DNA from: an uncultured Acidimicrobiaceae bacterium
Lineage (GTDB): Bacteria > Actinomycetota > Acidimicrobiia > Acidimicrobiales > Bog-793
Assembly (NCBI GenBank): GCA_963841155.1
Contig: CAWJBM010000002.1
Coordinates: 541,885-605,884, forward strand
Reading direction: 5' to 3'
DNA: 64,000 bases
In this document: positions 8,103 to 56,320 of the stretch, in pieces
Numbering within the stretch: position 1 is the first letter of the stretch
Layout of the letters: the number at the start of each line of letters is the position of its first letter
Translations under genes and position numbers: made by a program
The notes under the pieces: model-generated
Databases searched by the model: none
The model's input: only the letters and a program-made list of their open reading frames with translations
Told to the model about the DNA's origin: nothing

Positions 8103-8156
8103 GGCAATTCGTCATGGTGAGGGCTCTTCCATCACCGTTGACGTGGCCAGTGTGTA

Positions 8157-19668: not shown

Positions 19669-19885
19669 TGCGCCTGGCACTGCTGGCACCCATCCCCTGG
19701 CGTACCGCGCCGCGGCATTGCGGCCGTGGAAGCAGGTCGTTCTGGAACTTACGGACCTACTCGACACTTCGGGTCTCCAGAATCCGCGGAGACCACATGA
19801 CTCAACAACAAGCCCATCGGCAGCTCAGACACCGGCTGGCCGTCCTCCAGCACGCCGAGGAGGCCACCGGTAACGCCGCGACCTC

Positions 19886-23298: not shown

Positions 23299-23432
23299 GC
23301 TGCTTCCGGCCGCCTGGCCAGCGATGCCCGCGCGACCTGCTGCGCAGCCCCGCCCACTTTCCGCGACTGCCTGCGAAGTCGACCTGCTGTTCCGACAACC
23401 CCAGACTCCACTTAAGGGACAAGCCAAGGCCC

Positions 23433-24914: not shown

Positions 24915-24926
24915 GGCGGCGCAGGC

Positions 24927-25664: not shown

Positions 25665-25738
25665 GCACAACTCCCGATGGAGATCGGGCGGAGCCCTCTC
25701 CGGGAGACATCTCGACAAGGTGAAGGGGAGCTGGGAAG

Positions 25739-27073: not shown

Positions 27074-27109
27074 GAGGATCAGCCACGTAGAACCGGGAGA
27101 CCTGGGTTC

Positions 27110-28207
27110 ATGCAGGAACCACTGCCATATCACAGACTTGTCGACTACGGGACCGCCGATCCCGCGAAAGTGCTGGCACAGAGGCAAGGCCAAGCCACCA
27201 GTTCGAACATGCCCTACGGCTACAGCGAGGTGGCCGGCACCCGCGGTGAGTCGGCCTACGTGTTCGACATGGGCGACGTCTACGGCGCCCTGGTGCAAGA
27301 GGGTCTCGGCACCAAGAGCCTCATAGCCCGGGAGGTCTACGAGGTCACCGGTAAGTCCTACTTCCCCGCCATCGCGCAAGACACCGTCGCCGCTGTCATA
27401 AACGACCTGGTCAGCGTCGGCGCCCGGCCCGTGGCCTTGAACGCCTACTGGTCCTCGAGCTCCTACGAGTGGCTTGGCGACGCCGGGCTCACCGAAGGCT
27501 TCATCAGAGGCTGGCGGGCGGCTTGTGACCTGTCGAAAGTCGCCTGGGGCGGTGGTGAGACCCAGTCGCTACCGGGAGTGCTGCTGCCCGGAGCTCTCGA
27601 GTTCGCCGGGTCCGCCTTCGGCGTCATCAAGGACAAGAAGCGCCTGATCCAGGGCAAGGCTCTGCGGCCAGGCGACGCGATCGTCCTCATCGCCTCCAAC
27701 GGCGTCCACGCCAACGGGATCAGCCTGGTTCGAGACATAGCGAGCCGCTTGGAGGCCGGCTATCGGACCGAGCTAGATGACGGCGCTGAGCTCGGCGCGA
27801 CCGTTCTGCGTCCGTCTCATATATACGCCGAGCTAGTAGCCTCGCTGATCGATTCGAATGTGGAGGTCCATTATCTCTCGCACATAACGGGCCACGGCTG
27901 GCGAAAGCTGATGCGTCCCGCTGAGGAGCTCAGCTACGTCATCAATCGCCTTCCCCCGGTTCCGGAGGTGTTCAACTTCATTTCGGACCGTGCCCGGAGC
28001 GACCTCAGGGAAATGTACGGCAATTACAACATGGGCGCCGGGTACGCCGTCTATGTGCAGGAGAGCCACGCCGAACGCGTGATGTCGGTCGCGGCTGAGT
28101 GTGGGCTTCAGTCCTGGTTGGCCGGACGGGTCGAGGCCGGTCCCCGGCAAGTCGTCATCGAGCCGCTGGGTATCGTGTTCGGCGGCAGCACCTTAGGCGT
28201 CAGGTAG
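27110..28207 (+). CDS. purM: AIR synthase (PurM)-family protein, divergent form
   Basis: The PurM-family pattern is present with substitutions. [10 protein letters not shown] replaces [23 protein letters not shown] is present. [10 protein letters not shown] replaces [22 protein letters not shown] is present. Its position between purD and purL fits a PurM role. Confidence 0.65.
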
Positions 28208-31200: not shown

Positions 31201-32097
31201 TTCGACGACAGGGACCCGGGACTGAGCCAGAGAGCGACCTTCGGGAACATCGGGCTGGGAACGCCGAGCTCGAGAGCGGAGCGTCCGCGTGTCGCCATCT
31301 TCCGTGAGGAGGGGGTCAACGGGCAGATCGAAGCGGCGGCGGCTTTCGACGCTGTCGGCTTCACGAGCGTCGACGTCCATCTGAGCGATGTCATTACGGG
31401 TCGGATCGACCTCGAAGACTTCAGCGGGCTGGTCGCCTGCGGCGGCTTCTCTTACGGCGACGTCCTGGGGGCCGGCAAGGCCTGGGCGAAGTCGATCCTG
31501 TTGCAGAAAGACGTGAGGGAAGTATTCGCCGGGTTCTTCCGGCGTCCCGACACCTTCAGCCTGGGTGTCTGCAACGGATGCCAGATGCTGGCGGCTCTGA
31601 AGGAGATCATCCCGGGTGCAGATCAGTGGCCGGGATTCGTGAGGAACAGCTCAGAGCAGTTCGAGGCGCGACTCGTAAGTGTTCGTGTCAACGACTCGCC
31701 TTCCTTGTTCTTTCGGGACATGGCGGGCTCGGTCTTGTCGGTGCCGGTCGCTCACAGTGAAGGTCGAGTCCAGTTCGCGGACGATGAAAACTCGGTCGGG
31801 GCAGCGCTGGCCGGGCGGCTGGTGCCGCTCCAGTACGTCGACAATTATCACCGGGTCACAGCGAGATATCCCTACAACCCGAACGGCTCGATAGAAGGCG
31901 TCGCGTGTCTCACCAGCAGCGACGGGCGGGTCACTGTTCTGATGCCGCACCCGGAAAGAGCCTTCATGAGCCGGCAACTGTTCTGCGCAAGCCGAGCCCC
32001 TGGCCCGGACACAGGCTGGCTGCGGTTCTTCGAAAATGCGAAGGCTTGGACAGACGACGCAAGGCGGTCAGGCCTGCGAGCGGAACGCGCCCCTTGA
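28207..32097 (+). CDS. purL: Large single-chain phosphoribosylformylglycinamidine (FGAM) synthase
   Basis: N-terminus [52 protein letters not shown] closely resembles E. coli-type large PurL. The C-terminal glutaminase part has GVCNGCQML. The GTG at 28207 overlaps the purM-like stop by 1 nt. Confidence 0.92.
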
Positions 32098-41343: not shown

Positions 41344-41526
41344 GCGAGCACCTTGTCGGAGAGGAGAGCTCACGATCACATTCTTTGCGGCCCCACTCCC
41401 TCGGCAGACCACCGCTGGGCGCAATTATCGCCGTCAGTCCCGGGGAAGACCCATATAGCTATGAACTGTCGTCGAACAAGCCCCGGCTGTAGCCACATAC
41501 ACACCCACGGCAATGCAAGGACGATC

Positions 41527-42606
41527 ATGGATACCGAAAGCTTACGGGCCAGGTGGGAAACCCTCGAGAGCGAACAGCTGAAGGAAGTGGCCGAACTCGG
41601 CCTTCACACCCTGGCCAAGCATCGGCTCGGCCACCACCTCATAGACTTCGCGCTCGGCGGTGAAAGGCTCGAGAGCACGCGGCTGCGCACCCGGGTCGGA
41701 GGCATGTCGCTGGAGAACCCCGTCCTGGTCGGCGCCGGCTGGGACAAGAAGGGCTGGGCCGTCGACGGACTGTACGCGCTGGGTTTCGCCGGTACGGAAG
41801 TGGGTTCCGTGCTCGTCCACCCCCAGGCAGGCAACCCGCGTCCGCGTCTGTGGTACAGCCGTGGGGCTGCACTCAACCGGATGGGGTTCAACAGCCCGGG
41901 CATGGAGGAAGTGGCCAGGCATCTCGATGCGGCACAGAGGCCGGGTATTCTCGGCGTCAGTATCGGCAAGAACAGGCTGACCCCCGATGACCAGGCCCCG
42001 TGGGCACATGCAGCCGTGGCCGACAGGCTGTACGACCATGCGGATTACTTTGTGATCAATGTCTCATCGCCCAACACACCGGGACTGAGGAACTTGCTAA
42101 ACCCCGAGCCCCTCACCGATATTGTCGTGGCGGTGAAGGACGTGCTCGACTCCAAGGGACAAAAGCCCCTATTCATCAAGACAACTGTGGACCTGGCTCT
42201 CGAAGACCTCGACGACGTGATCAAGGTGTGTGTAGGTCATGGCGTTACCGGGATCATCGACTCGAACACCACGATCGACGATGGGCTGAAGTCACGCTAT
42301 GGCTGGGAAGGCCTGGCCGGGGGACTCAGTGGCGATGTCGGCGAATTCCGACACAGGGCCAATGAGCGCATGAAGGACCTGACGAGAATGACTCGCGGCA
42401 CGGGCCTGCAGAGGATCGGTGTGGGAGCCATCAACAGTGCTGCTGCTGCAATCGAACGGCTGCGGGCGGGCGCCCAGGCGGTTCAGGTCGTCACAGGGAT
42501 CCGTCAGAGCAAGGGCAGAGTCGCCCGCGAGATCAACCAGGGAATACTGGACTACCTGGATCGGCAGGGGCTCGAGAGCGTCGAGGACCTGACCGGTCTT
42601 GCTTGA
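41527..42606 (+). CDS. pyrD: Dihydroorotate dehydrogenase, class 2 (quinone-type)
   Basis: LENPVLVGAGWDKKG, LNRMGFNSPG and INVSSPNTPGLRNL are present. ATG 41527 was chosen inside ORF 41353..42606. Confidence 0.85.
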   Translation: MDTESLRARWETLESEQLKEVAELGLHTLAKHRLGHHLIDFALGGERLESTRLRTRVGGMSLENPVLVGAGWDKKGWAVDGLYALGFAGTEVGSVLVHPQAGNPRPRLWYSRGAALNRMGFNSPGMEEVARHLDAAQRPGILGVSIGKNRLTPDDQAPWAHAAVADRLYDHADYFVINVSSPNTPGLRNLLNPEPLTDIVVAVKDVLDSKGQKPLFIKTTVDLALEDLDDVIKVCVGHGVTGIIDSNTTIDDGLKSRYGWEGLAGGLSGDVGEFRHRANERMKDLTRMTRGTGLQRIGVGAINSAAAAIERLRAGAQAVQVVTGIRQSKGRVAREINQGILDYLDRQGLESVEDLTGLA

Positions 42607-43351
42607 GCGCTGCGAAGCTCCGCGCACGCCCCCGGACGTGGAGCTGCGGGCGCATGTACGAGGTCGTCATGGGTTCACGTGCGGATCATGAGCGACCGGG
42701 CGGCGGGATCGAAACTGGTCTGCTTGTCGCTCGGGCCGTCGTTGCCCGGGTCGTGATGCCGGGCATTGGCGCGACGAGGTGGAGGCCTCGGTGAGGGCAA
42801 CCCTCGCCGACCATGCGCAGGCATCCCCGCCCTGGGTTTCCCCCCAGCTGATCGGCGAGGCGACAGCTGAGCCCGGCAGCCTGGCTGGAAGCGTCGGTCG
42901 ACCGGGTCCGCTGGCGGGTAGGCCCATAGCCGACAGACCACGGAGAGGTGCCACTCGAGGAACGCCTGTGGGGAGATGAGCAGACCGTGCCGCCGAGAGC
43001 CGGGAAGAGGCGGGCGAGAAGCTCAACGCCGCGCCGAGCGAGGCAATACAAGAAGGATGGAGCCGCAGTCGGCCAGCCCTGCTCGGAACCTTCGACCAGT
43101 TCAAGGCAGGTCGGGGAACTCGACGGACTCTTCAGCCGCTGCCAAGGCATCCCCCGACGTGTCCAGGTCGGTGATGGGCCGTAGCGCTCGAGCGATAGCC
43201 TTCGCCCTGTCAGGGGCACGATCGCCGTGGCGTACGGCGCGAACGCGACCCACGTACGGGACGCTGCGCCGAAGCTTCATCAGTACACACTGCCCAGCGG
43301 GGGAACCGTATGGCCTACCGCAAGGGGTGGATCTGCGTGAAGGAGCTGTGA

Positions 43352-44083
43352 GTGGAAGAAGCTGCTGGGCTGGTCATGACCGCCCTGTACGAGCGGGGCA
43401 TGCTTCGTACCTGGTATCGCGACAGGCCGGAAGGGTGGACCCTGGTCTCCGGCCAATGGAGCCCGATATACCTTCAACTGCGGGAACTCTGCAGTTACCC
43501 CGATGTTCTGACAGACGTCGGCGTCGCACTCGCAGCGTTGCTCGACAAAGACCAACCCAGGCCTCAGCGACTCGTCGGCGTCGCTCTCGGCGGCATCCCG
43601 GTGGCGATCGCAACTTCGCTCGCGTCAGGGGTTCCTGCGTTGATGACGCGGAAACTCGCCGCACGGACTGAGCCCGGTGCCGCCGAGGAGCTGCAGCAAT
43701 ATGGACAACATGCGGCCCTTGAGGGGCAAATTGAGGCCGGCGACCAGCTGCTGCTCGTCGATGACCTCGTGACTCGCTTCGACTCGAAGCTCATCGCGGC
43801 TCGACAAGTCCAGCACGAGATCGAGAGGAGGGACCTGGAGGGCGTGTCGTGCAGTGATGTCCTTGTGGTCGTGGACCGCGAACAAGGCGGGGCGGAAGCG
43901 GCGTCGGAAGCGGGCTTTACTCTCCGTGCCCTCATTCGCCTCAAGAGCCAAGGAATGGATCTTCTCCGACCACACCTCAGTGCAACCGAGTATGACGTCG
44001 TCTGTTCCTACCTGAGTGACCCAGCCGCTTTTCAGTCCGTCGACGTGCAGCGACAGCTTAGAGTTGTGGCCCAAGCGAGATGA
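43352..44083 (+). CDS. pyrE: Orotate phosphoribosyltransferase-family protein with an atypical PRPP loop
   Basis: LVSGQWSPIYLQLR, VGVALGGIPVAIATSLA and VVVDREQGG fit OPRT. The PRPP loop reads LLLVDDLVTRFDSK instead of VDDVxTxGxS/T. Confidence 0.65.
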   Translation: MEEAAGLVMTALYERGMLRTWYRDRPEGWTLVSGQWSPIYLQLRELCSYPDVLTDVGVALAALLDKDQPRPQRLVGVALGGIPVAIATSLASGVPALMTRKLAARTEPGAAEELQQYGQHAALEGQIEAGDQLLLVDDLVTRFDSKLIAARQVQHEIERRDLEGVSCSDVLVVVDREQGGAEAASEAGFTLRALIRLKSQGMDLLRPHLSATEYDVVCSYLSDPAAFQSVDVQRQLRVVAQAR

Positions 44084-44116
44084 CGCCGCGAGGGCATTAC
44101 TGGCCAGGGAGGGCCC

Positions 44117-45013
44117 ATGGCATCTGCGTTTGTTGAGCTCCTCAACGAAAGATGGGCATGTGGCCACGCTGTATCGGTGGGGCTGGACAGCGACGCCCGG
44201 GCTTTGCCGACGCCCGCCGGTCAGGCCAGCCCGTCTCAACGTGAGTTCAACGCCAACATGGTCGATGCGACTGCGGACTTGGCCGGCGCCTACAAGATCA
44301 ACCTGGCGTTCTATCTGAATGGTGGTGTAGATGGCTTCATCGCCCTGCAGGAGACCGTCACGTACGCACGAAGGTTCGCGCCGGGCGTGGCGATCATCCT
44401 GGATGCGAAGTTCGGAGACATCGGCAACACCAACGAGGCTTATTCAGGTTTTGCCTATGACCTGCTCGGCGTGGACGCCGTCACCGTGAATCCGTATGTC
44501 GGGCGAGAGGCACTCAGGCCGTTTTTGGACCGCGAGGACAAGGGTGCAATCGTGCTCTGTCGCACCTCGAATCCTGGTGCCGCGGAGTTCCAGGGGTTGC
44601 AGTGTCAGCACGAAGAAGCCGGCCCGCGACCTTTGCCCCTGTATTGCCGAGTCGCGCACTCGGTGGCCTGTGATTGGAACGTGTTGGGTAATTGCGGTCT
44701 GGTGGTTGGCGGCACTGCACCTGAGGAGCTTCGAGAGGTCAGGGGCATAGCGGGGAGCATTCCCATCTTGATTCCGGGTGTCGGAACACAGGGTGGCGAC
44801 CTCGAGGCCACAGTCGCCGCAGGCCGAGGCTCCAGGGGTCCGGGCATCATTGTCAACGCTTCGCGATCGGTCATCTTCGCCTCGGGGGGAGAGGATTACG
44901 CCCGAGCGGCACGGGCCGAGCTCACGCGCCTGGATACGGAAGTGCACAGGCTCCTGGAGCGAGAGCCCGCTGAGCCGCTGGGCGCTGAACCAGCCAGTGA
45001 GCAGGTCCAATGA
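44117..45013 (+). CDS. pyrF: Orotidine 5'-phosphate decarboxylase, type 2
   Basis: VSVGLDSD, IILDAKFGDIGNT (DxKxxD) and VTVNPYVG are present. Confidence 0.85.
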   Translation: MASAFVELLNERWACGHAVSVGLDSDARALPTPAGQASPSQREFNANMVDATADLAGAYKINLAFYLNGGVDGFIALQETVTYARRFAPGVAIILDAKFGDIGNTNEAYSGFAYDLLGVDAVTVNPYVGREALRPFLDREDKGAIVLCRTSNPGAAEFQGLQCQHEEAGPRPLPLYCRVAHSVACDWNVLGNCGLVVGGTAPEELREVRGIAGSIPILIPGVGTQGGDLEATVAAGRGSRGPGIIVNASRSVIFASGGEDYARAARAELTRLDTEVHRLLEREPAEPLGAEPASEQVQ

Positions 45014-46548: not shown

Positions 46549-48126
46549 CTAACTGGCGAACGGACGAAGGAATTCGATTGTGGCGTGGCAGGTTCCCGAC
46601 GCGCTACCGAACGAGCGCACCTCATCAGCCACCTCTGTGATCTCTTCCAGAAACGTCTCCTGGGCGCCTTGGGCCGGGTCCTCGATAGTCGATTCGACGT
46701 AGAGGACCGCGAAGCGTGCGCGGCGGTGGTCGGGTTTCTTTCGGAGCACTCGACCCATCCGCTGGATCATCTGGCGGCGGGAACGGCTGGCACCGACGAT
46801 GAAGGCAAGGTCCGCCTCGGGGACGTCGACGCCCTCGTCCAGCACCCGTGGTGCCGAGATCACCTGCAGATCACCTTCGGCGAAACGCCGGAGCACCTCG
46901 CGGCGGTCCGCCGTTGCGAGCCGCGAGTGGACGCACTCAGCCCGCAAGCCCAGAGCAGTTAGGGCAAAGGCGGCGCTCTCGGCTGTTGCGATCGAGCCGG
47001 TGAAGACGATCGACCGGTCGGCGGAGGCTATCGCCGGAGCGAGTCCCTCCAGGGTTCGCGTCTTCGCCGGAGTGCCACCCAGAAGACGGCGGCGTTCGAG
47101 CAGCAGGGCCAGGTAGGCGCGGGCCTCACTCGCGCCGGCCGCGTCGCCACCGACACCTGAGGCGAGCAGGTTCAGCGCCTGAATGAACTGGCCAAAAGAG
47201 GCAGTCGGCAGTTGATAGCGCTGCATCAGCCGAGCGTGCCGGTGCCCGATCTGCAAAGTGAGCTCCTCGTAGATCGCCCGTTCGGCCGCAGGCAGGGCGA
47301 CACCAACCAAGGCAACCGTGAAACGAGCCGTGACGCCGTCGTCGACCGCTCGCCGGTATCCCATCCGAAAGCACGTCCCACCGAAGAAAGGATCGAGCCA
47401 ATTGACATGTCCGTCGTCGTCACGGGCGTAGGTGGCGCTCAGGCCCAGCCGGCGCTCGAAGCGTTGGTCGAGCGCGAGCCGGTTCATGGCGCTGGCGTAT
47501 CGGTGGCACTCGTCGGCCACGATCAGCCCTCCGCGACGAGTCATCCGCAGGTCATTGTCCCGAAGGCTGTTCACCACACCGACGACGATGTCGTGGGTCG
47601 CGAAGCTTCCGGTCTCTCCATCGCCGAGGCAACCGATCCAGTAGCCGGGCGGGAGAGCGGGCGTCATATGACGGTGCCATTGGTGCATCAGCTCGACGGT
47701 GGGGACGATGACGAGCACCTGACCTCGCCGGGCCAGTTCGTCGGCCGCCGCCGCTACGCCGAGCATCGTCTTGCCGGAGCCGGTCACCGCCTCGACGACG
47801 CCGCGATGATGTGCTGTCGCCCAACTGTCGAGGGCATCGCGCTGCCACGCGTACAGCCGGGAACGATCGAACGCAGCTGTTCGGCCATTCGCGAACTGAG
47901 TCGCCGGCGCGACGGTGGCTGGGTCGCTCCCCGCGAGCGACCACCTCTGGGGCAGGCTGCAGTCACACCTGAAGCGCTGGTGCCCGCTGAACAGGGCCAG
48001 TGTGATCGCCTGGACGTCCTGCCCGCGGTGAGCATCCGGCCGCGCCGTGAACAATACGGTCGCGATCTCGGCGGCCGTCAGCCCGGGGCGCTGTTCGAGC
48101 ACCTCCGATATGTCGTCGGCCAGCAC
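46549..48126 (-). CDS. Superfamily-2 DECH-box helicase (COG1061/ResIII-XPB-like); gene 5 of the five-gene operon
   Basis: Motif I AVTGSGKT, Ia VIVPTVELMHQW, II ADECHRY, III LSATYAR and VI QRMGRVLR are present. The ORF opens at 48282, but the GTG at 48126 lies 4 nt after the stop of the upstream ATPase. I see no nuclease domain. Confidence 0.85.
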   Translation of the reverse strand: MLADDISEVLEQRPGLTAAEIATVLFTARPDAHRGQDVQAITLALFSGHQRFRCDCSLPQRWSLAGSDPATVAPATQFANGRTAAFDRSRLYAWQRDALDSWATAHHRGVVEAVTGSGKTMLGVAAAADELARRGQVLVIVPTVELMHQWHRHMTPALPPGYWIGCLGDGETGSFATHDIVVGVVNSLRDNDLRMTRRGGLIVADECHRYASAMNRLALDQRFERRLGLSATYARDDDGHVNWLDPFFGGTCFRMGYRRAVDDGVTARFTVALVGVALPAAERAIYEELTLQIGHRHARLMQRYQLPTASFGQFIQALNLLASGVGGDAAGASEARAYLALLLERRRLLGGTPAKTRTLEGLAPAIASADRSIVFTGSIATAESAAFALTALGLRAECVHSRLATADRREVLRRFAEGDLQVISAPRVLDEGVDVPEADLAFIVGASRSRRQMIQRMGRVLRKKPDHRRARFAVLYVESTIEDPAQGAQETFLEEITEVADEVRSFGSASGTCHATIEFLRPFAS

Positions 48127-48130
48127 ATCG

Positions 48131-49588
48131 TCACTCCGTGGAGTCGCCAGCTCGGTCGCCGAACCAGCTTCCTTGAGAATGGGCTTGCGAAGAGCCGCTC
48201 CCGCCAGCGTCCTCCAAGTCCTTCTCGTCGGCACCGCCAACCCCGTGCCCGGAGCCTCCGTCGCCCAACCGATCCCCGCCATCCTCGGCTCCGCCGCCCT
48301 CGAGCTCGGCGTCTTCGCTCAGGTCGACCTCAAGGGTGGCGGCCTCGATCTCGGGCTCGTACGACGGATCGAGACGCCGGAGATCCCACTCATTGATCCA
48401 GGCGCGCACGTACTGGCGCATCCGGTTCGAGGGCAGGCGCTCCAGCCCGGTTACCGCGGGCGGAAGCCAACCGAACGCTTCGCCGTGTATCTCCCGCAAC
48501 CTCCTGTACGTGCGGTCGAGCTCCTCCTGCGCGGGAGGCTGGAGCTTGACCTGCTCGTGACCGATGATGCGCATCCCTGTCTCGGCTAGCGATGCAAGGA
48601 CGTCATCGGCGGCGGTCCCACCTGCCCGCAAGCGCTGCGGGATCAACACCGCGTCGTTCTTGCCGACAAGCACCTGGGTCTCATAGTCGTCGACAGTGGC
48701 AAGCACTGCGCCGATAGGGGCGCTGATGTCGTCACGGTCGCCGCGGACCCAGCGGGCAATCTCAGCGTACGACTTGGCGCGCTGACCGATCGTGTAGCGG
48801 CCGATGAGCTCCACTTCGTCGAACAGGACTATCCAGCCTCGGTATCCGGCTGCCCGCACCAGCCTGGAGACGAACCGGAAGCGTTGTCGCGCCAGGTCCG
48901 CCTCCCGCACACCGGCAATCCGGTAGGACGAGCTTGCACCGTGTTCGCGAAGCCGGCGGCGGATGTCGGTCACCGAGAGCCTGTCACCTGCCCAGAAGCG
49001 GATGATGCGGTCTCGCAGCTCCTCGTCACCTCGCGCGTACTCGTAGAGATAAAGTGTGGCCGCGAACCGCTTGTCCACCGGGGCCTCATCCCCATGTACC
49101 CAGCGATAGAGGTCCCGGTACTCGGGCGAGTCGAGGTCTATCGCCACGGCAATCTCGTCGATCGCCGACCCGGGCCGGCCCGGAACCCGTGCCTCGTCGA
49201 TCGCGGCGCGGAAAACCTTGGACGGGTCGTGAAGGGGGGTCTCCTTGGAGATCGTGACCTTCGACACGACGAAACTCTGACTCAGTGCGACGTTCGCCAA
49301 GTGCTCGAGCACGTGGCTCTTGCCACTGCCAAATCCTCCACCGATCATCATGGCCCGTGAGGTGGAGCGGGGCTGTGAGGTGACGAGCGGCGCGGACACA
49401 CCAGAAGGCGGGCCCAACGTCGGGTCGGCCAGAACGCCGACGGCATCGAGGATGTCCGCGAATCGGTCCTCCACGCCGATCTGCATCGACCCGAGCTCGA
49501 CGACCGCGTCGCGGTTGGGCACACCTGCGCGCAAGGCTTCGAGCGCTCGGCGCGCCCGCACGGCACGATCGGTAGTTTCGGTGGTCAT
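48131..49588 (-). CDS. P-loop ATPase resembling the DUF2791/BrxD family; gene 4 of the operon
   Basis: RARRALEALRAGVPNRDAVVELG leads into Walker A GGGFGSGKSH. The Walker B context is GWIVLFDEVE. The C-terminal tail is acidic and Gly-rich. The ATG at 49588 overlaps the upstream stop (ATGA). Confidence 0.75.
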   Translation of the reverse strand: MTTETTDRAVRARRALEALRAGVPNRDAVVELGSMQIGVEDRFADILDAVGVLADPTLGPPSGVSAPLVTSQPRSTSRAMMIGGGFGSGKSHVLEHLANVALSQSFVVSKVTISKETPLHDPSKVFRAAIDEARVPGRPGSAIDEIAVAIDLDSPEYRDLYRWVHGDEAPVDKRFAATLYLYEYARGDEELRDRIIRFWAGDRLSVTDIRRRLREHGASSSYRIAGVREADLARQRFRFVSRLVRAAGYRGWIVLFDEVELIGRYTIGQRAKSYAEIARWVRGDRDDISAPIGAVLATVDDYETQVLVGKNDAVLIPQRLRAGGTAADDVLASLAETGMRIIGHEQVKLQPPAQEELDRTYRRLREIHGEAFGWLPPAVTGLERLPSNRMRQYVRAWINEWDLRRLDPSYEPEIEAATLEVDLSEDAELEGGGAEDGGDRLGDGGSGHGVGGADEKDLEDAGGSGSSQAHSQGSWFGDRAGDSTE

Positions 49589-50547
49589 ACCTTCGCCTCC
49601 TCGCGGCCGATCCGGACAAGGGACGAGAACGGGTTGTCTCGACGACGGTCGCGAATCTCGTCGAAGATACGGAGTTTGAGGGCTTGATAAGCGTCGAGAC
49701 CGCGGGCCTCGTCGGTAAGCAGCTCCGGTGCTGCGATCACAACAACACAGCACCGAGCGAGCTCGTCGGTACTGTCGATTAGCTGCCGCAACACCTCGTA
49801 GGCGTCGAGGAGCCCGAGTCTCGTGTAGTACTGGCCGGCTCGTTCGTCCACCGGAGGACGACGGGCGACGCCGAGGCGACGGATGTCAATGACGACCAGC
49901 AGGCCGGCGAACCCGTTCGTCGCCAGCCAGTGCGGTAACGAAAAGAGCATCTGCCGGGCGTTGTGGCGGGCGATCCGCCGGTAGATGAGCGCGGACTTGA
50001 GCGCCGACATCTGCCGCAGATCCCCGCGAAGCCATTCGAGGAGAGCGCCGTGCTCGGCGTCACTCACCTGCCCGGTACGAAACGCAGCCTGGCACAACCG
50101 CAACATGCCAATCCGGAACTCCTGGACCATGTCGTAATCCCTGAAGATGCGGTGCTGCAGCTCACGATCCACATCGCGCTTCAGTTCCCGAGCATCGGTC
50201 CTGTAGTGGGCAGCGAGCGCGTCGACCGTCGGGATGTCGGTCGTCGGTGCAGGGAAGCCCGCCGCGGCGGCGGCGCTCCTCAGAGCTCTCACTGCGAGCT
50301 CATCCCAGTCGATCTGGCGGGCGACCTCGAAGAAGATCTGCTCCATCAAGTGCACGCGGGTGGCGGCCGCGTCCACGGTCGCCACGACGTAGCCGGACCG
50401 CCGCCCTTCGTTGACCACCCGATCCTGAAAGTCGGATGCAACAGAGTCGTCCGCCACGGCGAACTTAACAGCGCATCCGCCCGTGTCCACGTAGCCGCGG
50501 AGATACTCCCGTGAGAGGAATTCGACGTACTCCTCGGGGCCGATCAT
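49585..50547 (-). CDS. Unknown protein, apparently a P-loop-less paralog of the downstream ATPase; gene 3 of the operon
   Basis: YLRGYVDTGGCAVKFAVADDS sits where a Walker A would be. LLVVIDIRRL sits where a Walker B would be. ATGA overlaps occur at both ends. Paralogy was judged only by eye. Confidence 0.5.
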   Translation of the reverse strand: MIGPEEYVEFLSREYLRGYVDTGGCAVKFAVADDSVASDFQDRVVNEGRRSGYVVATVDAAATRVHLMEQIFFEVARQIDWDELAVRALRSAAAAAGFPAPTTDIPTVDALAAHYRTDARELKRDVDRELQHRIFRDYDMVQEFRIGMLRLCQAAFRTGQVSDAEHGALLEWLRGDLRQMSALKSALIYRRIARHNARQMLFSLPHWLATNGFAGLLVVIDIRRLGVARRPPVDERAGQYYTRLGLLDAYEVLRQLIDSTDELARCCVVVIAAPELLTDEARGLDAYQALKLRIFDEIRDRRRDNPFSSLVRIGREEAKV

Positions 50548-51344
50548 TCCCCCACCTCCTCGAAGCAGATACCGGCATAATCCTTCGCCTGGCCGCCGCG
50601 CGTCACCGTGCGCAGCACACCGCCTGATCGCGTAAGAGCACTCGCCGGAAGGCTCATCCGACGTCCTCGCTTCGTCGTCACGACCCCACTCTGATCCAAG
50701 AGATAGATGTCGCGGGCGAACTCGGGTCTCGTGTACTCGCGGGCGGCCCCGGGCATGATCGTGAGCACGCTGTGCACCTCCACGAGCCTGACGGGCGCGC
50801 CCGACCGCATCGACTTCGAGGCGATCACGAGATCATAAGCGGAGGAGAGCGCCTCGATGAACGCCTCCGGCTTGAACTTCGGCTCCCTTTGCTGAAGCTG
50901 GCCGAGCCTGGCGACAACGACCGATGGGCGGATCCGGCGGTCCTTCTTCTTGTCGATGATGACCGACGTATCGCTAGGCGACACCTGCACGATGACGGGG
51001 TAGCAAAGGATACGGTCATCCAACTCGAAGGCACTCACGCCAGCTTCGGCGGTAGAGGCCAGCAACTCCCTCTTGTACTCACCGGACGCGAACCAGTCCT
51101 CGACATCGAAGCGCCACGCCGCCTTCAGACGCTCTGCAGCAACTGCGGCGGCGTTGGCCAACTGAGCAGCTCCATCGAGGGCTTGCGGGATGTCTCGGAC
51201 AGTTCCGGTCTCGGCGGCTGCCTTGGCCCTCTTCGCAACTCGGGCCACGGACGAGACCACCTCCAGCAACGCTACCGCTTCAGCCTCGAGCGCTTCGAGC
51301 GCTCGTTCGAGGCCGTCGCCGCCCGCATCCGGCAATTCGTTCAT
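50544..51344 (-). CDS. Unknown protein (266 aa); gene 2 of the operon
   Basis: An Ala-rich helical N-terminus is followed by a beta-rich core, FELDDRILCYPVIVQVSPSDTSVIIDKKKDRRIRP. ATGA overlaps occur at both ends. I recognise no family. Confidence 0.6.
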   Translation of the reverse strand: MNELPDAGGDGLERALEALEAEAVALLEVVSSVARVAKRAKAAAETGTVRDIPQALDGAAQLANAAAVAAERLKAAWRFDVEDWFASGEYKRELLASTAEAGVSAFELDDRILCYPVIVQVSPSDTSVIIDKKKDRRIRPSVVVARLGQLQQREPKFKPEAFIEALSSAYDLVIASKSMRSGAPVRLVEVHSVLTIMPGAAREYTRPEFARDIYLLDQSGVVTTKRGRRMSLPASALTRSGGVLRTVTRGGQAKDYAGICFEEVGE

Positions 51345-53479
51345 GCCGCTCCTCCTGTCTCATCGGTCGTTTCGTCAACTTCACCGCTGGCCCTGAACGG
51401 TCCAGCAGAGCACGGACCACTGGCGACCACCGCAGGTCGTGCGACGAGTGCAGCCGCGCGCACCTCGACAACAACCTCCCCTCCGGGGGCGAATCCGAGC
51501 ACCAAGACATCGCCGGGTCCAGCCCCTGCAGCCATCGCGATCGGGCGCAGCGGTCCGCGCCGCGGCTCCGGCCCGTCGTTGGCCAGCCTCACCGGCCCGT
51601 ACCGGCTCGAGAACGTTCGATGCTGCCGCCAGCCGATGCCTAGAAAGCGGGCGACTCCGTCCGGAACAGCGGACTCGCCGCCTCGCATCAGGTCGTCGTC
51701 AACCCTCGCCGTCAACCAGGCGCGGCGGGAGGCTGGGTCATCGCCATCAGGCTCGGTCACGGCCCAGCCGGGCATGGATCCCCACACCTGCGCCTCGTCG
51801 TCAAGGCAAGCGGTCTCGGGCTTGGCAATGCCAGGAAGGCCCAGCTGCTCGTTCGGAACTGGGTCGGAAGTCTGACCAGGCGCTCCAAGGAAAGCTCCAC
51901 TAGACAGCTCGCCAGCTCGTCGCACGTCTGTCTTTCGCTCACGGGCGAAAGCCGCAACCGAGTCATCGGCACCGGACCCCGCTGGGGATTGTTGGCGGGT
52001 GCTCAGCCGGTTCGGGGACAGCCCACCCACGCTCCCCCGCGGCCAACTTCTCAGCTCGTAGACGTCGTTAGTGACTTGTCTGAACCGCCGGCCGCGAAGC
52101 GCCCGCTGGAGCTCAGCCTCATCGAAGGAGCGCCCTCCGTTGAGGAGAAGGTGCCGGCACTGGGAGAAAGTGAGGCCACGACCGCTGGCATCGATCAGGC
52201 GTTCCAAGACGTCGACCAACGATCCTGACAGCCAGACAGCGAGATCGTCGTCAACCACGGCGGCACCGCACGCGTTGAGCCAGGGGCGCACCGATGCCGC
52301 CACGACTCCAAGCTCTTCCAGCGATGGCTCGATCGCCGCCAGGGATCGGACGCCACCGTCTTGGGTCAGCATCTCCCTCGTCCGCGAAAGCAGGTCGTCT
52401 GGCTGCACGCAGCGCCAGCCAGGGCAGCGAGCTACTGGCTCGAATGGGCCCGCAAGCCAAAGCAACAGCTCCACCGCCCTCTTCGCCTCGTGCCCGGTCG
52501 ACGAGTCAAAGCCGAAACGGCGTAACCCGGCACGGATCGCCTCTGTCGTCGTCGCTCGTCCAAGTGACCGGCGAACGCGCTCGACCAGCCATTCGAGAGG
52601 TGCAGGTGCCGCTGCCAGCTCTTCGCGAACTTGAACCGCCGCACGATCACGTCGCTGAGCGACACGTGAGTGTGAGATCCCGAGCTCTTCGGCGAGCTCG
52701 GCAAGGCTCCGGCGGTCAGAGCACAGCTCATTCGATATGAAGATCGACCGATCCTGGTCGTCTGTGATGCCGCTCAGCAGATCAATCAACACGGAGACAT
52801 GCTCGAGTGCCCAGGGTGCACTGCTGACAAGGAGGCGGCGCGCGGCGTCAGTGCCAACGCTCGGAGCTTCTAGATGCGCTGTGGCGGCGTCGAGTAGCGA
52901 TTCCAGCACCGGTTGCTTCGGACCGCGTCGCTCCTCGGTCAACAGCAGGGTGAGGTCGTTGTCGTCGGAGGTCTCGACCCCCATGGAAAGACCGATCAAA
53001 CTCCTCTCAAAGCAGGCAGCCAGTACGGAGACGACTGTCGTCGGACCAAGACCTGACATCTCGAGCAGGTGGGCGACAGTGAGATCGAGAAGCTCCGACC
53101 AACGGGAATGCCCCGCACGCTCCAGTGCTGCTCTTGCCCTCTGGTGGAGGTTCCGCGGGCCAAGGCGACCATCAGGAACGAGCCGGGCGAGAGGTGCGAG
53201 ATCACCCAACTCTCGCGGGCCAAGCACGGCACGATCCCACCCCCGTGCGAACGCGCTCTCGAACCAGGACCGAACCTCCTGGCGTCGCTTCGGGTCACAG
53301 ACGTCGCCCAGCTCCACCAACGACAGCGAGTCGCAGCCTCCGCCAACGTCGCCATCGGCTCCGAGCTTCTCGAGAAGGAACGAGCGTCCGGAGTCGGTCA
53401 GCGCAGCGCCACCGTTGAAAGCGTCTCCGAACCGACGTCGCTGAGTGTGGCCAACAAGGTCTCTGGCTAACGAGTGCAT
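51341..53479 (-). CDS. Large multi-domain protein (712 aa) with RpoA alpha-CTD-like and sigma-70 region-4-like helices; gene 1 of the operon
   Basis: LGPRNLHQRARAALERAGHSRWSELLDLTVAHLLEMSGLGPTTVVSVL matches an alpha-CTD helix-hairpin-helix pattern. RSLAELAEELGISHSRVAQRRDRAAVQVREEL is an r4-like HTH. The rest is unassigned. Confidence 0.6.
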   Translation of the reverse strand: MHSLARDLVGHTQRRRFGDAFNGGAALTDSGRSFLLEKLGADGDVGGGCDSLSLVELGDVCDPKRRQEVRSWFESAFARGWDRAVLGPRELGDLAPLARLVPDGRLGPRNLHQRARAALERAGHSRWSELLDLTVAHLLEMSGLGPTTVVSVLAACFERSLIGLSMGVETSDDNDLTLLLTEERRGPKQPVLESLLDAATAHLEAPSVGTDAARRLLVSSAPWALEHVSVLIDLLSGITDDQDRSIFISNELCSDRRSLAELAEELGISHSRVAQRRDRAAVQVREELAAAPAPLEWLVERVRRSLGRATTTEAIRAGLRRFGFDSSTGHEAKRAVELLLWLAGPFEPVARCPGWRCVQPDDLLSRTREMLTQDGGVRSLAAIEPSLEELGVVAASVRPWLNACGAAVVDDDLAVWLSGSLVDVLERLIDASGRGLTFSQCRHLLLNGGRSFDEAELQRALRGRRFRQVTNDVYELRSWPRGSVGGLSPNRLSTRQQSPAGSGADDSVAAFARERKTDVRRAGELSSGAFLGAPGQTSDPVPNEQLGLPGIAKPETACLDDEAQVWGSMPGWAVTEPDGDDPASRRAWLTARVDDDLMRGGESAVPDGVARFLGIGWRQHRTFSSRYGPVRLANDGPEPRRGPLRPIAMAAGAGPGDVLVLGFAPGGEVVVEVRAAALVARPAVVASGPCSAGPFRASGEVDETTDETGGAA

Positions 53480-53614
53480 CCCCGCCGACGATACAAGAGA
53501 GGTGTGTCAGCTATCGGTGGGGTGCATCGAGTAACCACCTTCAGGCCGGTCCGGAATGGGGCCTCGGCACCCGAAGACGGAGCTACCGCCAGTGGCCGCG
53601 TCCAAGCGCCGGGT

Positions 53615-53706
53615 GGGCCAAACTGCTTTCGAGCATTGGTCCAGAACGTAACACACATCTGGGCCAAATAGCTTCGATAGGTGGGTCCAAAACGCTAACA
53701 TACTGG
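53615..53706. repeat. Imperfect 46-bp tandem direct repeat (x2) abutting the start codon of the DUF4143 ATPase gene
   Basis: Unit 1 is GGGCCAAACTGCTTTCGAGCATTGGTCCAGAACGTAACACACATCT. Unit 2 is GGGCCAAATAGCTTCGATAGGTGGGTCCAAAACGCTAACATACTGG. The shared core is GGGCCAAA..GCTT.CGA..GGTCCA.AACG.TAACA. Confidence 0.6.
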
Positions 53707-53707
53707 T

Positions 53708-54952
53708 ATGTGCCCGTCTCTCTATGTGACACGTCTGGTCGACAGGCCACTCGCGGATCTGTTCGCCCAGTTGCCGGCGCTGCTGATAGTCGGCCCCCGC
53801 GCCACGGGCAAGACCACCAGCGCACGGCGGCTCGCCCGCTCGGTGGTCAGGTTGGACGTGCCCGCCGAGGCCGCTGCGTTCCGCTTCGACGCCGATGCGG
53901 CACTGGGAGCGATGCCCACGCCGGTGCTCCTCGACGAGTGGCAGGAGGTTCCCGGGCTGATGGGAGCGGTGCGGCGCGCAGTCGACGAGGACTCGAGTCC
54001 CGGACGGTTCCTCCTCACCGGAAGCGCCCGGGCACGGCGCGGGAGTGATGTGTGGTCGGGCATTGGCCGAGTGGTCAGTCTGAGGATGTACGGACTAACG
54101 GTGCGCGAGACCGTCGGGCACAGTGACGGCCCGGGGTTCCTCGAGCGGCTGGCAACGGCTGATCTAGCGGCGTTCCCCGTTCCTGCCGACCCGCCGAACC
54201 TGATTGGATATGTTGACCTAGCGCTCAGGGGCGGCTTTCCCACGCCTTTCCTGCGCCTTGTCGGCGGCGCAAGGCAGGAGTGGCTCGACACCTACGTGGA
54301 TCAGCTGGTGACCCGCGATGCCGAGACTTTGGGCAGTACCCGGGACCCGGTGTTGCTTCGCCGTTACTTGGAAGCGCTGTGCGTCAACACTGCCGGCGTA
54401 GTCGAGGACAAGTCGATTTACGACGCCGCTTCGATCAGCAGAATGACGGCAGCTGCCTATGAGCGTCTGCTGTCGGACCTGTTCGTGTTCGAGGCGCTGC
54501 CGGCGTGGAGCAACAACCGACTGTCACGCCTCGTGAAAGGGCCGAAGCGCTACATGGTGGACACCTCCCTGGTGGCGGCTGCCCTTCGACTCGACCAGCG
54601 GGCCATTCTGCGTGATGGCGATCTGCTGGGCCGAGTGATGGACACATTCGTGGTCTCGCAGCTCCGGCCCGAGGCCGAGCTCAGCCCATTGCGCCCGCGC
54701 CTGTATCACCTGCGGGAGAAGGACGGACGGCACGAGATCGACCTTCTTGCGGAGGTGGCCGGTGGTGACGTGATGGCTGTCGAGATCAAGGCCACCGCCA
54801 CGCCAGACACTGGCGACGCCCGCCACCTGGCGTGGTTGCGGGATCGGCTCGGCCAACGGTTCCTTGCCGGCGCCGTCCTCCACACCGGGCCTCGGCCGTT
54901 CGGTCTCGGTGAAAGGATCTTCGCTCTGCCCATCTGCTCGCTCTGGCATTGA
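53708..54952 (+). CDS. AAA-type ATPase with a DUF4143-like C-terminal domain
   Basis: Walker A VGPRATGKTT and LLDEWQEVP are present. The C-terminal part, ..LYHLREKDGRHEIDLL..AVEIKA, is typical of the ATPase/DUF4143 family. Confidence 0.75.
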   Translation: MCPSLYVTRLVDRPLADLFAQLPALLIVGPRATGKTTSARRLARSVVRLDVPAEAAAFRFDADAALGAMPTPVLLDEWQEVPGLMGAVRRAVDEDSSPGRFLLTGSARARRGSDVWSGIGRVVSLRMYGLTVRETVGHSDGPGFLERLATADLAAFPVPADPPNLIGYVDLALRGGFPTPFLRLVGGARQEWLDTYVDQLVTRDAETLGSTRDPVLLRRYLEALCVNTAGVVEDKSIYDAASISRMTAAAYERLLSDLFVFEALPAWSNNRLSRLVKGPKRYMVDTSLVAAALRLDQRAILRDGDLLGRVMDTFVVSQLRPEAELSPLRPRLYHLREKDGRHEIDLLAEVAGGDVMAVEIKATATPDTGDARHLAWLRDRLGQRFLAGAVLHTGPRPFGLGERIFALPICSLWH

Positions 54953-55140: not shown

Positions 55141-55386
55141 TCACCCCGTCCCGGTCGTGGCCTGCTGCAGTCGCACGCTGTCACCGCAGGTGACACAGAC
55201 ATGCGCGTGATGCATCAGGCGATCGACTGTTGCACTGGCGAGCATCTTGGGCATGAGCTCCTCGAAGCCGGACGGGTGCAGGTTCGAGCTGACCGCGACC
55301 GAGCGCTTCTCGTAAGCGGCGTCCACAAGGCGGTAAGGACCCTCGGCGGCATCGTGGCTCACGGGCAAGAGCCCGATGTCGTCTTG
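55141..55386 (-). mobile_element. istB: IS21-family IstB helper-ATPase gene fragment (Walker B to stop only)
   Basis: QDDIGLLPVSHDAAEGPYRLVDAAYEKRSVAVSSNLHPSGFEELMP..ATVDRLMHHAHVCVTCGDSVRL. An in-frame stop lies immediately upstream. Confidence 0.7.
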
Positions 55387-55653: not shown

Positions 55654-56208
55654 CTAACCGAGCCGCTCGAGCACGGCGTTCACCGCGTCCTTGCTGAAGT
55701 CCTCGGAGTCGAAGTCCTCACCGACCCACTCGAGGTACTCCTCGTGCTCCTCGTGGGAGGGGTCGCCGAGCGCCTCGAGCAGGTTGTAATAGCCCCACAC
55801 CCCGCCGCAGTCCTCGGGCGGACAGGCACGCTTGCCGCCGGTGCAGAGCGCGACACCTTTCCACGCAACCGGGACGTCGGTCTTCTCGACGAGGAGCCGG
55901 TGCTCCCAGGAGTCGCCGAAGTCGTAGTCATAGACGCCACGCCGTTCATCAGCGAAGGCCTCGGCGATCGTCACGGTCTTCTCGTCGACCTCGTCCATGT
56001 CGAAGTCCTCGTAGTCGGCCGGCCCATAGCGGACACCGCCGATCCGGAAGCAGTGGAGGTGGTAGTCCTCCCAGCCCATCGCGACCTGGAGCACCCGGTG
56101 CAGCTCGTCGAGGGTGGCGGACCCGGAGACGACCAGCCGGCGCCAGATCGGTGGCCGGCTGCCGTCGAGCGTCACCTTGATCTGCAGCGTCGTCGGCGCA
56201 CCAGTCAC
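55654..56208 (-). CDS. Plasmid pRiA4b ORF-3-like family protein
   Basis: LQIKVTLDGSRPPIWRRLVVSGSATLDELHRVLQVAMGWEDYHLHCF..YDYDFGDSWEH..CPPEDCGG is the signature of this family. Confidence 0.8.
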   Translation of the reverse strand: MTGAPTTLQIKVTLDGSRPPIWRRLVVSGSATLDELHRVLQVAMGWEDYHLHCFRIGGVRYGPADYEDFDMDEVDEKTVTIAEAFADERRGVYDYDFGDSWEHRLLVEKTDVPVAWKGVALCTGGKRACPPEDCGGVWGYYNLLEALGDPSHEEHEEYLEWVGEDFDSEDFSKDAVNAVLERLG

Positions 56209-56320
56209 GTCCGCACGTTACGCGCCGGCGGCGCTCCCAGGGCGGACCCTTAACTGTCTGGATGTCCGCACAGCTATCGGTGGCCTCCACCGCTAGCCAA
56301 TCCGCAAGGACGATCCAGCC

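Follow-up and report, generated by a model that had tools for sequence, protein, structure and literature searches.

We analyzed a 64,000-nucleotide stretch (the window) of contig CAWJBM010000002.1 from an uncultured Acidimicrobiaceae bacterium, which carries at 46549-53479, on the minus strand, a cassette of five consecutive open reading frames (ORFs) in the order g1-g2-g3-g4-g5 (Table 1). Independent gene calls on 21 public metagenome contigs of identical or nearly identical sequence give the same five genes. A preliminary description of this DNA had reported five packed minus-strand genes joined by ATGA start/stop overlaps, and the ORFs, the contig gene calls, and our direct reading of the junctions all agree with it. 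Specifically, ATGA overlaps join g1 to g2 (GGCATGAAC, 51341-51344), g2 to g3 (GGAATGATC, 50544-50547), and g3 to g4 (GGTATGACC, 49585-49588), and GGAGG-like Shine-Dalgarno sequences, located inside the upstream genes, precede g2, g3, and g4. At the fourth junction (GAG TGA CGAT GTG), g5 starts with a GTG codon 4 nt past the g4 stop. Of the two g5 starts that had been considered, this one stands and the overlapping one does not: since the alignments of homologs begin at the GTG-initiated residue 1, the longer ATG-initiated ORF reaching to 48282 is unsupported. The ATGA overlaps recur in loci whose g1 is only 37-52% identical. The five cassette genes are translationally coupled and co-inherited as a unit.

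Table 1. Coordinates of the cassette genes, the domains of g1, and the features at the upstream border (AF2, AlphaFold2; CTD, C-terminal domain; pLDDT, predicted local distance difference test; SF2, superfamily 2)
Feature	Position	Strand	Size	Assignment	Basis
g1	51341-53479	-	712 aa	Predicted multi-domain DNA-binding protein	
g2	50544-51344	-	266 aa	Signature protein of the family	
g3	49585-50547	-	320 aa	P-loop-less PF10923 paralog	
g4	48131-49588	-	485 aa (from the ATG at 49588)	PF10923 AAA+ ATPase, intact by motifs	
g5	46549-48126	-	525 aa	SF2 DECH helicase/translocase, XPB/PbeA type	
g1 residues ~105-165	52985-53167	-		Possible RNA polymerase alpha-CTD-like helix-hairpin-helix	PDB sequence profile, E = 0.2-1.4
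g1 residues ~223-297	52589-52813	-		Sigma-70 region-4-like helix-turn-helix	Pfam, NCBIfam, PDB profile, Foldseek
g1 residues ~295-476	52052-52597	-		Three helix/beta-hairpin modules	AF2 secondary-structure pattern, pLDDT >90
g1 residues 483-583	51731-52033	-		Disordered linker	pLDDT <50; gappy and variable in the alignment
g1 residues 584-680	51440-51730	-		Predicted B3-like DNA-binding pseudobarrel	Foldseek against the PDB
Divergent intergenic region, g1 to DUF4143 gene	53480-53707	.	228 bp		Gene layout
DUF4143/AAA_14 ATPase gene	53708-54952	+			PADLOC PDC-S01, E = 6e-101
IstB_IS21 fragment	55141-55362	-	73-aa product		
PRiA4_ORF3-family gene	55654-56217	-			

The proteins encoded by g3 and g4 both match PF10923 (BrxC_BrxD, formerly DUF2791; ORC/Cdc6-clade AAA+) above the Pfam gathering cutoff of 22.2 bits, with 56.2 bits (E = 3.7e-15) for g3 and 71.5 bits (E = 8.6e-20) for g4. 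The Walker A motif of g4 reads GFGSGKS (49316-49336) and its Walker B motif LFDEVE (48809-48826), and GxGSGKS and LFDEVE are kept across 66 homologs. In g3, GGCAVKF takes the place of the P-loop, and a single D is left of Walker B. Because this loss (GGxAVKF and the single Asp) is itself kept across 72 homologs, we regard g3 as a conserved, probably catalytically dead PF10923 paralog, and g4, from its motifs, as an apparently intact ATPase. With the family match above cutoff and the motifs checked, g4 is the DUF2791/BrxD-like P-loop ATPase, and g3 the P-loop-less paralog, that had been proposed. The paralogy rests on both proteins matching PF10923 and not on their direct profile-profile alignment, which is weak (E = 0.033), collinear, and brings the Walker B strands together. 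In PADLOC, g4 matches BrxD (E = 1.2e-13) and SngB (E = 7.1e-11), and g3 matches SngB (E = 4.8e-6); against the BrxD equivalog NF033438, g3 and g4 reach 41.5 and 50.9 bits vs a cutoff of 350, i.e., about 7-fold below it.

The identification of g5 as a DECH-box SF2 helicase was likewise borne out, as ResIII, DEAD, Helicase_C, and ERCC3_RAD25_C all match above their Pfam cutoffs and the motifs could be verified. Motif I (GSGKT) lies at 47767-47781 and DECH at 47503-47514, and GSGKT, DECH, SAT, and QRMGR (QRxGR) are kept in 52 homologs, with a variable N-terminal part of ~90-140 aa. The PADLOC match of g5 is to PbeA (E = 2.7e-60) and spans only positions 249-625 of the 672-position profile, which is the helicase core; no PLD/HKD nuclease domain was found in g5 by Pfam, and the N-terminal ~250 positions of the PbeA profile are unmatched. 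The protein scores 159.7 bits vs a cutoff of 600 against TIGR04095 (“DNA phosphorothioation system restriction enzyme”) and E = 6e-25 against NF045503 (XPB/Rad25 family). It matches the BrxHI models over the Helicase_C part only (E = 5e-11) and SngC over part of its length (E = 3.5e-6). No repair or replication equivalog in NCBIfam reaches its threshold for g4 or g5, which places neither protein in an ordinary repair or replication family.

The signature protein of the family is g2, which has no match in Pfam, NCBIfam, PADLOC, or PHROG. In its AF2 model (pLDDT 86.5), residues 12-76 form a long coiled-coil hairpin and residues 81-262 an alpha/beta domain, and Foldseek finds no significant structural neighbor of it in the PDB or BFVD. 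In an exhaustive profile search, the g2 family comprised 803 representatives of 50%-identity clusters at E <= 1e-3 (224 at E <= 1e-30), and only G47, P116, P140, Y204, and F209 are invariant across this broad family. We take g2 to be a non-enzymatic scaffold or adaptor. A hidden PD-(D/E)xK nuclease (D125...D131-K-K, with MutH at Foldseek rank 2) was considered and rejected because the MutH match is poor (56 columns, E = 1.9), the lysine two positions past D131 is variable, and the broad family does not keep the acidic residues. Matches of g2 to a TolR-like domain among PDB sequences (E = 0.13-0.5) were taken as chance.

A pattern-limited scan for g2, using one genome per species for 185,579 species, returned 78 species-level loci, all in metagenome-assembled genomes (MAGs). 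By taxon label, these include 42 loci of the Acidimicrobiia lineage, 13 of “Actinomycetes bacterium”, 6 of Actinomycetota, 5 of Dormibacterota, 4 of Mycobacteriales, 2 of Nakamurella, and 1 of Cellulomonas, of which a few are probably mis-binned. The order g1-g2-g3-g4-g5 is kept in nearly all 78 loci, as determined by tblastn together with a hidden Markov model of g1. Identity to the window is 55-67% for g2 through g4 and about 50-57% for g5, vs 26-40% for g1, the fastest-evolving subunit. Two contigs of one “uncultured proteobacterium” MAG (L072 and L074) each carry a cassette with no g1 match, the upstream sequence of L072 being too short to judge; either this genome has two copies, or actinobacterial contigs were mis-binned. 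A contig of a “Bifidobacterium breve” MAG (L056) is similarly suspicious.

Among 5.8e9 proteins, g1 has 24 word-sharing homologs, and it has no defense-family match in Pfam, NCBIfam, or PADLOC. Its AF2 model (pLDDT 77.6) shows a helical N-terminal half, a disordered linker of ~100 residues, and a small C-terminal beta domain. Two domains had been claimed for this protein, a sigma-region-4-like helix-turn-helix (HTH) and an RNA polymerase (RNAP) alpha-CTD-like helix-hairpin-helix (HhH). The HTH is supported by both profile and fold matches, namely, Pfam Sigma70_r4 (E = 3.4e-4, below cutoff), TIGR02937 (E = 8.6e-4), RpoH region 4 in a profile search of PDB sequences (E = 2.7e-5), and the sigma region 4 structures 3hug and 6onu in Foldseek (probability 0.99-1.0). 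The HhH is weakly supported and suggestive only: eight of the nine top PDB matches of the profile are RNAP alpha C-terminal domains, but at sub-threshold E-values of 0.2-1.4. Following the HTH, the three helix/beta-hairpin modules can be read, from their AF2 pattern, as winged-HTH-like.

The C-terminal domain of g1 resembles the B3 fold. Foldseek aligns it at probability 1.0 and a target template-modeling (TM) score of 0.49-0.56 to two plant B3 domains, those of VAL1 (5yzy) and At1g16640 (1yel), and the LlaJI.R1 N-domain (6c5d), with the C-terminal DNA-recognition domain of BfiI ranking lower (probability 0.82, TM 0.40). The corresponding E-values, 0.02-0.05, are diluted by the length of the query (712 aa). 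The resemblance is at the level of the fold, as no sequence-level match to B3 proteins was found for this domain. It is the best-conserved part of g1, and the B3 fold serves DNA recognition in EcoRII, BfiI, and LlaJI. The g1 protein occurs in a full-length form of ~700 aa and in a short form of ~450-480 aa, without the N-terminal ~165 residues. It is absent in about half a dozen of those of the 78 loci that have enough upstream sequence to judge, and it is confined to the Actinomycetota/Dormibacterota subtype. In its fast evolution, g1 is like many defense sensors and specificity subunits, which tend toward it. Our models present g1 as a rapidly diverging, predicted multi-domain DNA-binding protein that ends in a B3-like domain.

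We also examined eight more distant loci (including L090 and L092-L094). At each of them with readable downstream genes, a dead and a live PF10923 ATPase come after g2, i.e., the trio persists. In three of the eight, one of them from Dehalococcoidales, the trio is followed by an SNF2 helicase whose closest matches are ZorD, DpdE, and DrmD; an extra protein of 180-190 aa is encoded at two of these three loci. One further locus has a similar small protein and then an unannotated 571-aa gene; two have no adjacent helicase, and two lie on contigs too short to tell. Upstream of g2, no g1 homolog was called where the contig was long enough. The components of the SNF2 subtype match no single PADLOC system either and include none that is PbeA-like. 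Since the trio persists while g1 and the helicase vary, the cassette in the window is, as judged from gene content, one subtype (g1 plus an XPB/PbeA-type helicase) of a wider unnamed family. The comparison of loci indicates a conserved core formed by g2 and the dead/live pair of BrxD-family AAA+ proteins, next to which most loci carry an SF2 translocase with intact motifs.

Two of the distant loci have other features of interest. At L090 (3713-11390), the g2-g3-g4 trio has an N-terminally extended g2 of 365 aa and lacks its own helicase. It is convergent with a Dnd/Pbe-type cluster whose products are a DNA_S_mod_dnd_assoc_4 protein, an AAA_23 ATP-binding cassette (ABC) ATPase, a protein of 60 aa, an SF2 helicase of 648 aa, DndE, and DndD. 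On L092, a 496-kb MAG contig, the SNF2 cassette lies near genes for an anti-Pycsar Apyc1-like metallo-beta-lactamase hydrolase, a Macro-domain protein, and a phage-type integrase (7652-8614 and 18759-20581).

The window itself is ordinary chromosome, with purF, purD, and purL, carB, pyrD, and pyrF, nfi, sensor kinases, and other housekeeping genes. The flanks given in the preliminary description were confirmed, comprising the convergent nfi on one side and, on the other, the DUF4143/AAA_14 ATPase gene, the IstB_IS21 fragment, and the PRiA4_ORF3 gene. Between species, the flanks are unrelated: the 308 flanking proteins at the 78 loci fall into 275 clusters (the cassette is flanked, for example, by a his operon plus a PIN gene, by a ROK kinase plus an ABC transporter, or by a sulfatase). 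The largest cluster, with 8 members, is the DUF4143/AAA_14 ATPase that also borders the cassette in the window and that matches the PADLOC candidate PDC-S01. Genes in the flanks were called with a codon-usage log-odds caller that reproduces the reference gene calls.

We compared 110 immediate neighbors of the cassette with 110 distal genes located at least 6 genes away in the same loci. The immediate neighbors include 7-8 PDC-S01/DUF4143, 6 PIN, 3 AbiEii, 3 Uma2, 3 PDC-S03/DUF2786, and 2 Fic/SoFic proteins, vs 3 PDC-S01 and at most one of each other family among the distal genes. The immediate neighbors match 131 PADLOC families vs 23 for the distal genes, and the Fisher p-value of the enrichment is 0.002 to 8e-6, depending on how unseen singletons are counted. 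The homologous cassettes thus lie outside conserved housekeeping neighborhoods, next to genes rich in toxin-antitoxin (TA) and defense-candidate families. No tRNA genes, Rfam matches, or flanking repeats were found at the cassette. A phage or prophage origin was rejected, with no match on IMG/VR contigs and no PHROG match for g1 through g4.

The DUF4143 gene is divergent from the cassette, and its PDC-S01 homologs stand directly beside the cassette, upstream or downstream, in 7-8 other loci (L010, L011, L012, L014, L023, L065, and L070); the ATPase could either recur as a partner in such islands or assist the cassette functionally. Beyond it, the IstB_IS21 fragment and the PRiA4_ORF3 gene look like mobile-element debris, and a 22-nt imperfect direct repeat (53508/56271), probably due to chance, brackets this segment. 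From the gene layout, the promoter of the operon is presumed to lie in the divergent intergenic region, in which a scan for the sigma-70 consensus gave no match. The same region contains, at 53615-53706, two tandem imperfect copies of a ~46-nt sequence (GGGCCAAAyxGCTTTCGA...GGTCCArAACG.TAACAyAC), which stop 1 nt short of the DUF4143 start codon (ATG) and may be an operator or regulatory repeat. Elsewhere in the window, a 243-aa ORF between pyrD and pyrF (43352-44083, plus strand) has no Pfam match and is called on all related contigs. The carB gene is called as two pieces in L001 (19204-20963; 804 aa and a 247-aa MGS-domain part) and intact in L002-L006 (1129 aa), a split that a frameshift, an assembly error, or strain variation would explain.

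We consider the cassette to be a chromosomally inserted, horizontally mobile unit that, with roughly an even chance and as the most likely of the readings discussed here, carries out modification-independent, ATP-driven surveillance against foreign DNA (phage or plasmid). In such a system, g1 would dock the complex on DNA or sense a DNA- or transcription-linked cue, and the coiled coil of g2 would scaffold a g3/g4 hetero-oligomer. This pair may act as a nucleotide-gated loader or switch, as has been proposed for BrxD with BrxHI, and would engage the g5 translocase on the target. Since no nuclease is detectable, the machine would most likely not cleave the invading DNA directly but translocate along it or unwind it, and in this way block its replication or transcription or expose it to host nucleases; the non-degradative action of PbeABCD is a possible precedent for such an outcome. 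The strongest argument for the functional unit comes from the helicase swap: an XPB-type helicase is non-orthologously displaced by an SNF2 helicase beside the same trio, and therefore the AAA+ pair plus a double-stranded DNA motor appears to be that unit. In addition, all component affinities that the profile searches suggest are to defense modules, with g3 and g4 related to BrxD and SngB, and g5 to PbeA. The coupling and kept gene order, the unrelated flanks, the neighbors rich in defense candidates, the Dnd/Pbe cluster beside one trio, the conserved motifs of g4 and g5 and conserved loss in g3, and the fast evolution and B3-like fold of g1 speak for the reading as well. The hedged proposal of a candidate defense or DNA-surveillance module, made in the preliminary description, is therefore supported: it survives the system search, the comparison of neighborhoods, and the search for repair and replication families alike.

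Several points weigh against this reading. We infer the defense function, and the cassette is a credible antiphage or antiplasmid candidate; it encodes no recognizable effector (nuclease, NADase, membrane protein, or protease) and is linked to no modification enzyme that would account for self/non-self discrimination. Repair and replication also make use of PbeA/XPB-like helicases and of ORC-like AAA+ proteins. The enrichment control used our own gene calls and lists of the top 25 families, and many cassette flanks are plain housekeeping genes. All carriers found are MAGs, in which mis-binning and incomplete context are possible. There is also no compositional anomaly, the GC content being 65.7% for the operon, 66.7% for the window, and 66.6% for the DUF4143 gene, which had been put at about 75% when low GC was first argued to indicate an accessory origin; that argument fails. 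In this genome, low GC is an unreliable sign of foreign origin because housekeeping genes are lower still: pyrD and pyrF (41344-45013) and purL (23259-32097) have 62.7-64.2% GC (pyrD and pyrF, 62.7%) and a weaker bias at third codon positions, with about 70% at the window ends. Compositional evidence for horizontal origin was consequently rejected. Finally, the cassette appears to be undescribed as judged by PADLOC-DB v2.0.0, Pfam-A, NCBIfam, and the literature, but may have a name in post-2023 catalogs.

Other explanations account for part of these observations. The cassette could be one half of a split system, i.e., a modification-dependent, restriction-like module akin to PbeABCD/Dnd that reads a phosphorothioate (PT) or methyl mark written by genes elsewhere. 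By far the best match of g5 is PbeA, accompanied by TIGR04095; at L090, the distant trio stands directly beside a cluster with DndD, DndE, PbeA-like, and AAA_23 genes; B3-like domains occur in modification-sensing or sequence-specific restriction enzymes; and dndCD is reported to be missing next to about 58% of PbeAC pairs (PMC6459918). However, g5 matches PbeA in the helicase core only, HKD, the PbeC-type ABC ATPase, and DndE being absent, and the subtypes with an SNF2 helicase have no PbeA-like component. No dnd, ssp, or methyltransferase gene was found among the 30 window ORFs or in the 8- to 10-kb flanks of L007-L009 and L092-L094. Most of the 78 loci were screened through their immediate neighbors and a sample of distal genes; Dnd genes are nearby only at L090, and the only DndA/SspA matches in the screen are three class-V aminotransferases of the distal set. 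We therefore regard a split system as unlikely. The case is less favorable for accessory, non-defense genome maintenance, in which an XPB-like helicase, an ORC-like loader, and a specificity factor would act in repair, replication restart, or transcription-replication conflicts. It is true that g5 matches the XPB/Rad25 families (NF045503 and ERCC3_RAD25_C), that g1 has modules like RNAP alpha-CTD and sigma region 4, that nfi (endonuclease V) adjoins the cassette in the window, that no toxin-like effector is present, and that AAA+ proteins of the ORC/Cdc6 clade classically load helicases (PMC12839542). Nevertheless, all repair equivalog scores are far under their cutoffs, and the distribution is patchy (78 of 185,579 species genomes in the pattern-limited scan). 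Moreover, the chromosomal position differs in nearly every carrier, the neighbors are enriched for TA and defense candidates, and the adjacency to nfi is seen only in the window's population (L001-L006) and not at other loci with listed gene calls, which makes such a maintenance role quite improbable.

The RNAP-like modules allow a further possibility, in which the alpha-CTD-like and sigma-4-like parts of g1 would mimic the surface with which host RNAP recognizes promoters and would serve as bait for phage proteins that take over transcription. Their binding would release or activate the AAA+/helicase machinery, perhaps to attack the cell's own DNA in abortive infection. Both modules are found in one protein, g1 evolves fastest, and it is dispensable for the conserved core and present in one subtype only, as expected for an exchangeable sensor; the system also has no modification-based discrimination. 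The idea rests purely on domain resemblance, however, with the alpha-CTD match sub-threshold and the short g1 variants entirely without that region; HTH and HhH are generic DNA binders, and the B3-like domain, as the best-conserved part of g1, points to DNA and not protein as the ligand. We accordingly hold a guard or decoy role to be very unlikely. An equally long shot is a bolder extension of defense, namely, a new nuclease-less immune family in which g1 would be an exchangeable sensor with RNAP decoy modules and a B3 reader that detects foreign DNA or the takeover of transcription by a phage and switches on the engine of g2 and the dead/live AAA+ pair, which would load the SF2 or SNF2 translocase to stall invader replication, with ORC-like loading logic repurposed. 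There is least to be said for a module for maintenance, replication, or partition of an unrecognised integrated element, with g1 as initiator, g3/g4 as loader, and g5 as helicase. A multi-winged-HTH, initiator-like protein together with an ORC-like AAA+ protein and a helicase does look like a replication module, the cassette varies in its genomic position, and its surroundings occasionally include transposases, integrases, or a TrwC relaxase. Yet no integrase, transposase, or rep gene accompanies it consistently, and in most loci the conserved unit is the cassette genes alone between unrelated chromosomal genes; flanking repeats, tRNA genes, viral-contig matches, and PHROG matches for g1 through g4 were all absent from the searches described above, and we consider this origin highly improbable.

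In terms of novelty, we rate the two signature proteins, g1 and g2, as belonging to no family and the AAA+/SF2-helicase module itself as of a known kind. The number of candidate defense systems now being found tempers the weight of one more candidate. The cassette is nonetheless useful and tractable, with its minimal architecture free of nuclease and modification genes, its dead/live pair, its helicase displacement, and the unusual domain mix of g1. In addition, g2 offers a handle on a sizeable family for which neither Pfam nor NCBIfam has a model, and the cassette bears on the immune repertoire of Acidimicrobiia, an abundant and essentially uncultured lineage of soil and peat.

In searches of PADLOC-DB v2.0.0, Pfam-A, and NCBIfam, the five genes fall into no system, and their matches are split over BrxD/SngB and PbeA. 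The claim that no named system fits all five thus holds, with g1 and g2 unmatched, g3 and g4 matching weakly, and g5 through its helicase core only. Full-text searches of the literature on the PF10923/BrxD family turned up no account of a cassette like this one. We rejected the idea that it is a BREX or Pbe remnant because the gene set is kept in 78 species without the partners of those systems. As had been noted from the outset, PADLOC and Pfam find no PglZ, PglX methyltransferase, or TerB among the five proteins, and no nuclease is recognizable in them at the sensitivity of the profile and fold tools used.

The cassette shares with BREX type 2 (Pgl) a tightly linked pair, as in BrxD-BrxHI, in which a PF10923 ATPase lies directly upstream of an SF2 helicase. 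BrxD is proposed to load or activate the BrxHI helicase, and AAA+ proteins of the ORC/Cdc6 clade are known as helicase loaders (PMC12839542). Unlike BREX type 2, the cassette has g1 and g2 as extra genes and lacks PglZ, PglX, PglW, and BrxC/PglY; its ATPase is duplicated into a dead and a live copy, and its helicase is of the XPB/PbeA type, whereas BrxHI is Ski2/Lhr-like. PglZ was found neither in the five proteins and the 25 other window ORFs nor among the commonest immediate-neighbor families of ~70 loci, and PglX/BrxX or other methyltransferase domains were not found in the cassette or the window ORFs scanned. Shango (SngA, a TerB protein; SngB, an ATPase; SngC, a DEAD/DEAH helicase) is similar in combining an accessory protein, an ATPase, and a helicase without nuclease or methyltransferase, and it provides modest antiphage defense by experiment (bioRxiv 10.1101/2022.11.11.516204 and 10.1101/2022.05.11.491447). 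The cassette differs from it in having five genes instead of three, with a dead ATPase paralog, with g1, and with a coiled-coil plus alpha/beta protein (g2) and no TerB; neither TerB (Pfam) nor SngA (PADLOC) matches g1 or g2 at E <= 0.01. The SngB and SngC matches of g3, g4, and g5 are weak and partial and indicate family-level relatedness, not orthology.

The helicase core of g5 is closest to PbeA, a fusion of an HKD nuclease with an SF2 helicase (PMC10853773). PbeABCD has been reported to halt viral DNA replication without DNA degradation (PMC6459918), an interpretation that is disputed (PMC10853773). The cassette differs in lacking the HKD domain, PbeB, PbeC (a CxC ABC ATPase), and PbeD (DndE), and the 64-kb window contains no dnd genes; AAA_23, SMC_N (PbeC-type), and DndE (PbeD) were not found in the cassette by the same pipeline that detects such families in L090.

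The C-terminal pseudobarrel of g1 has the predicted fold of the B3 domains of restriction proteins (EcoRII N-domain, BfiI C-domain, and LlaJI.R1 N-domain). In CglI and NgoAVII, a B3-bearing R-protein works with an NTP-hydrolysing SF2 partner, to which the combination of g1 and g5 is similar, and LlaJI is alike in combining B3 with an AAA+ motor. Unlike in these proteins, no PLD, PD-(D/E)xK, or McrC-type nuclease is attached or adjacent, and the B3-like domain of g1 is tethered through a ~100-residue linker to an HTH array. If the cassette is a defense system, it would add to BREX type 2 and Shango a third, architecturally distinct setting of the BrxD-like AAA+/SF2-helicase module; having no methyltransferase, PglZ, TerB, or nuclease, it is also the leanest of these settings. 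It would therefore be a cleaner system for the role of the ATPase-helicase pair and for self/non-self discrimination that operates without a nuclease or a DNA mark.

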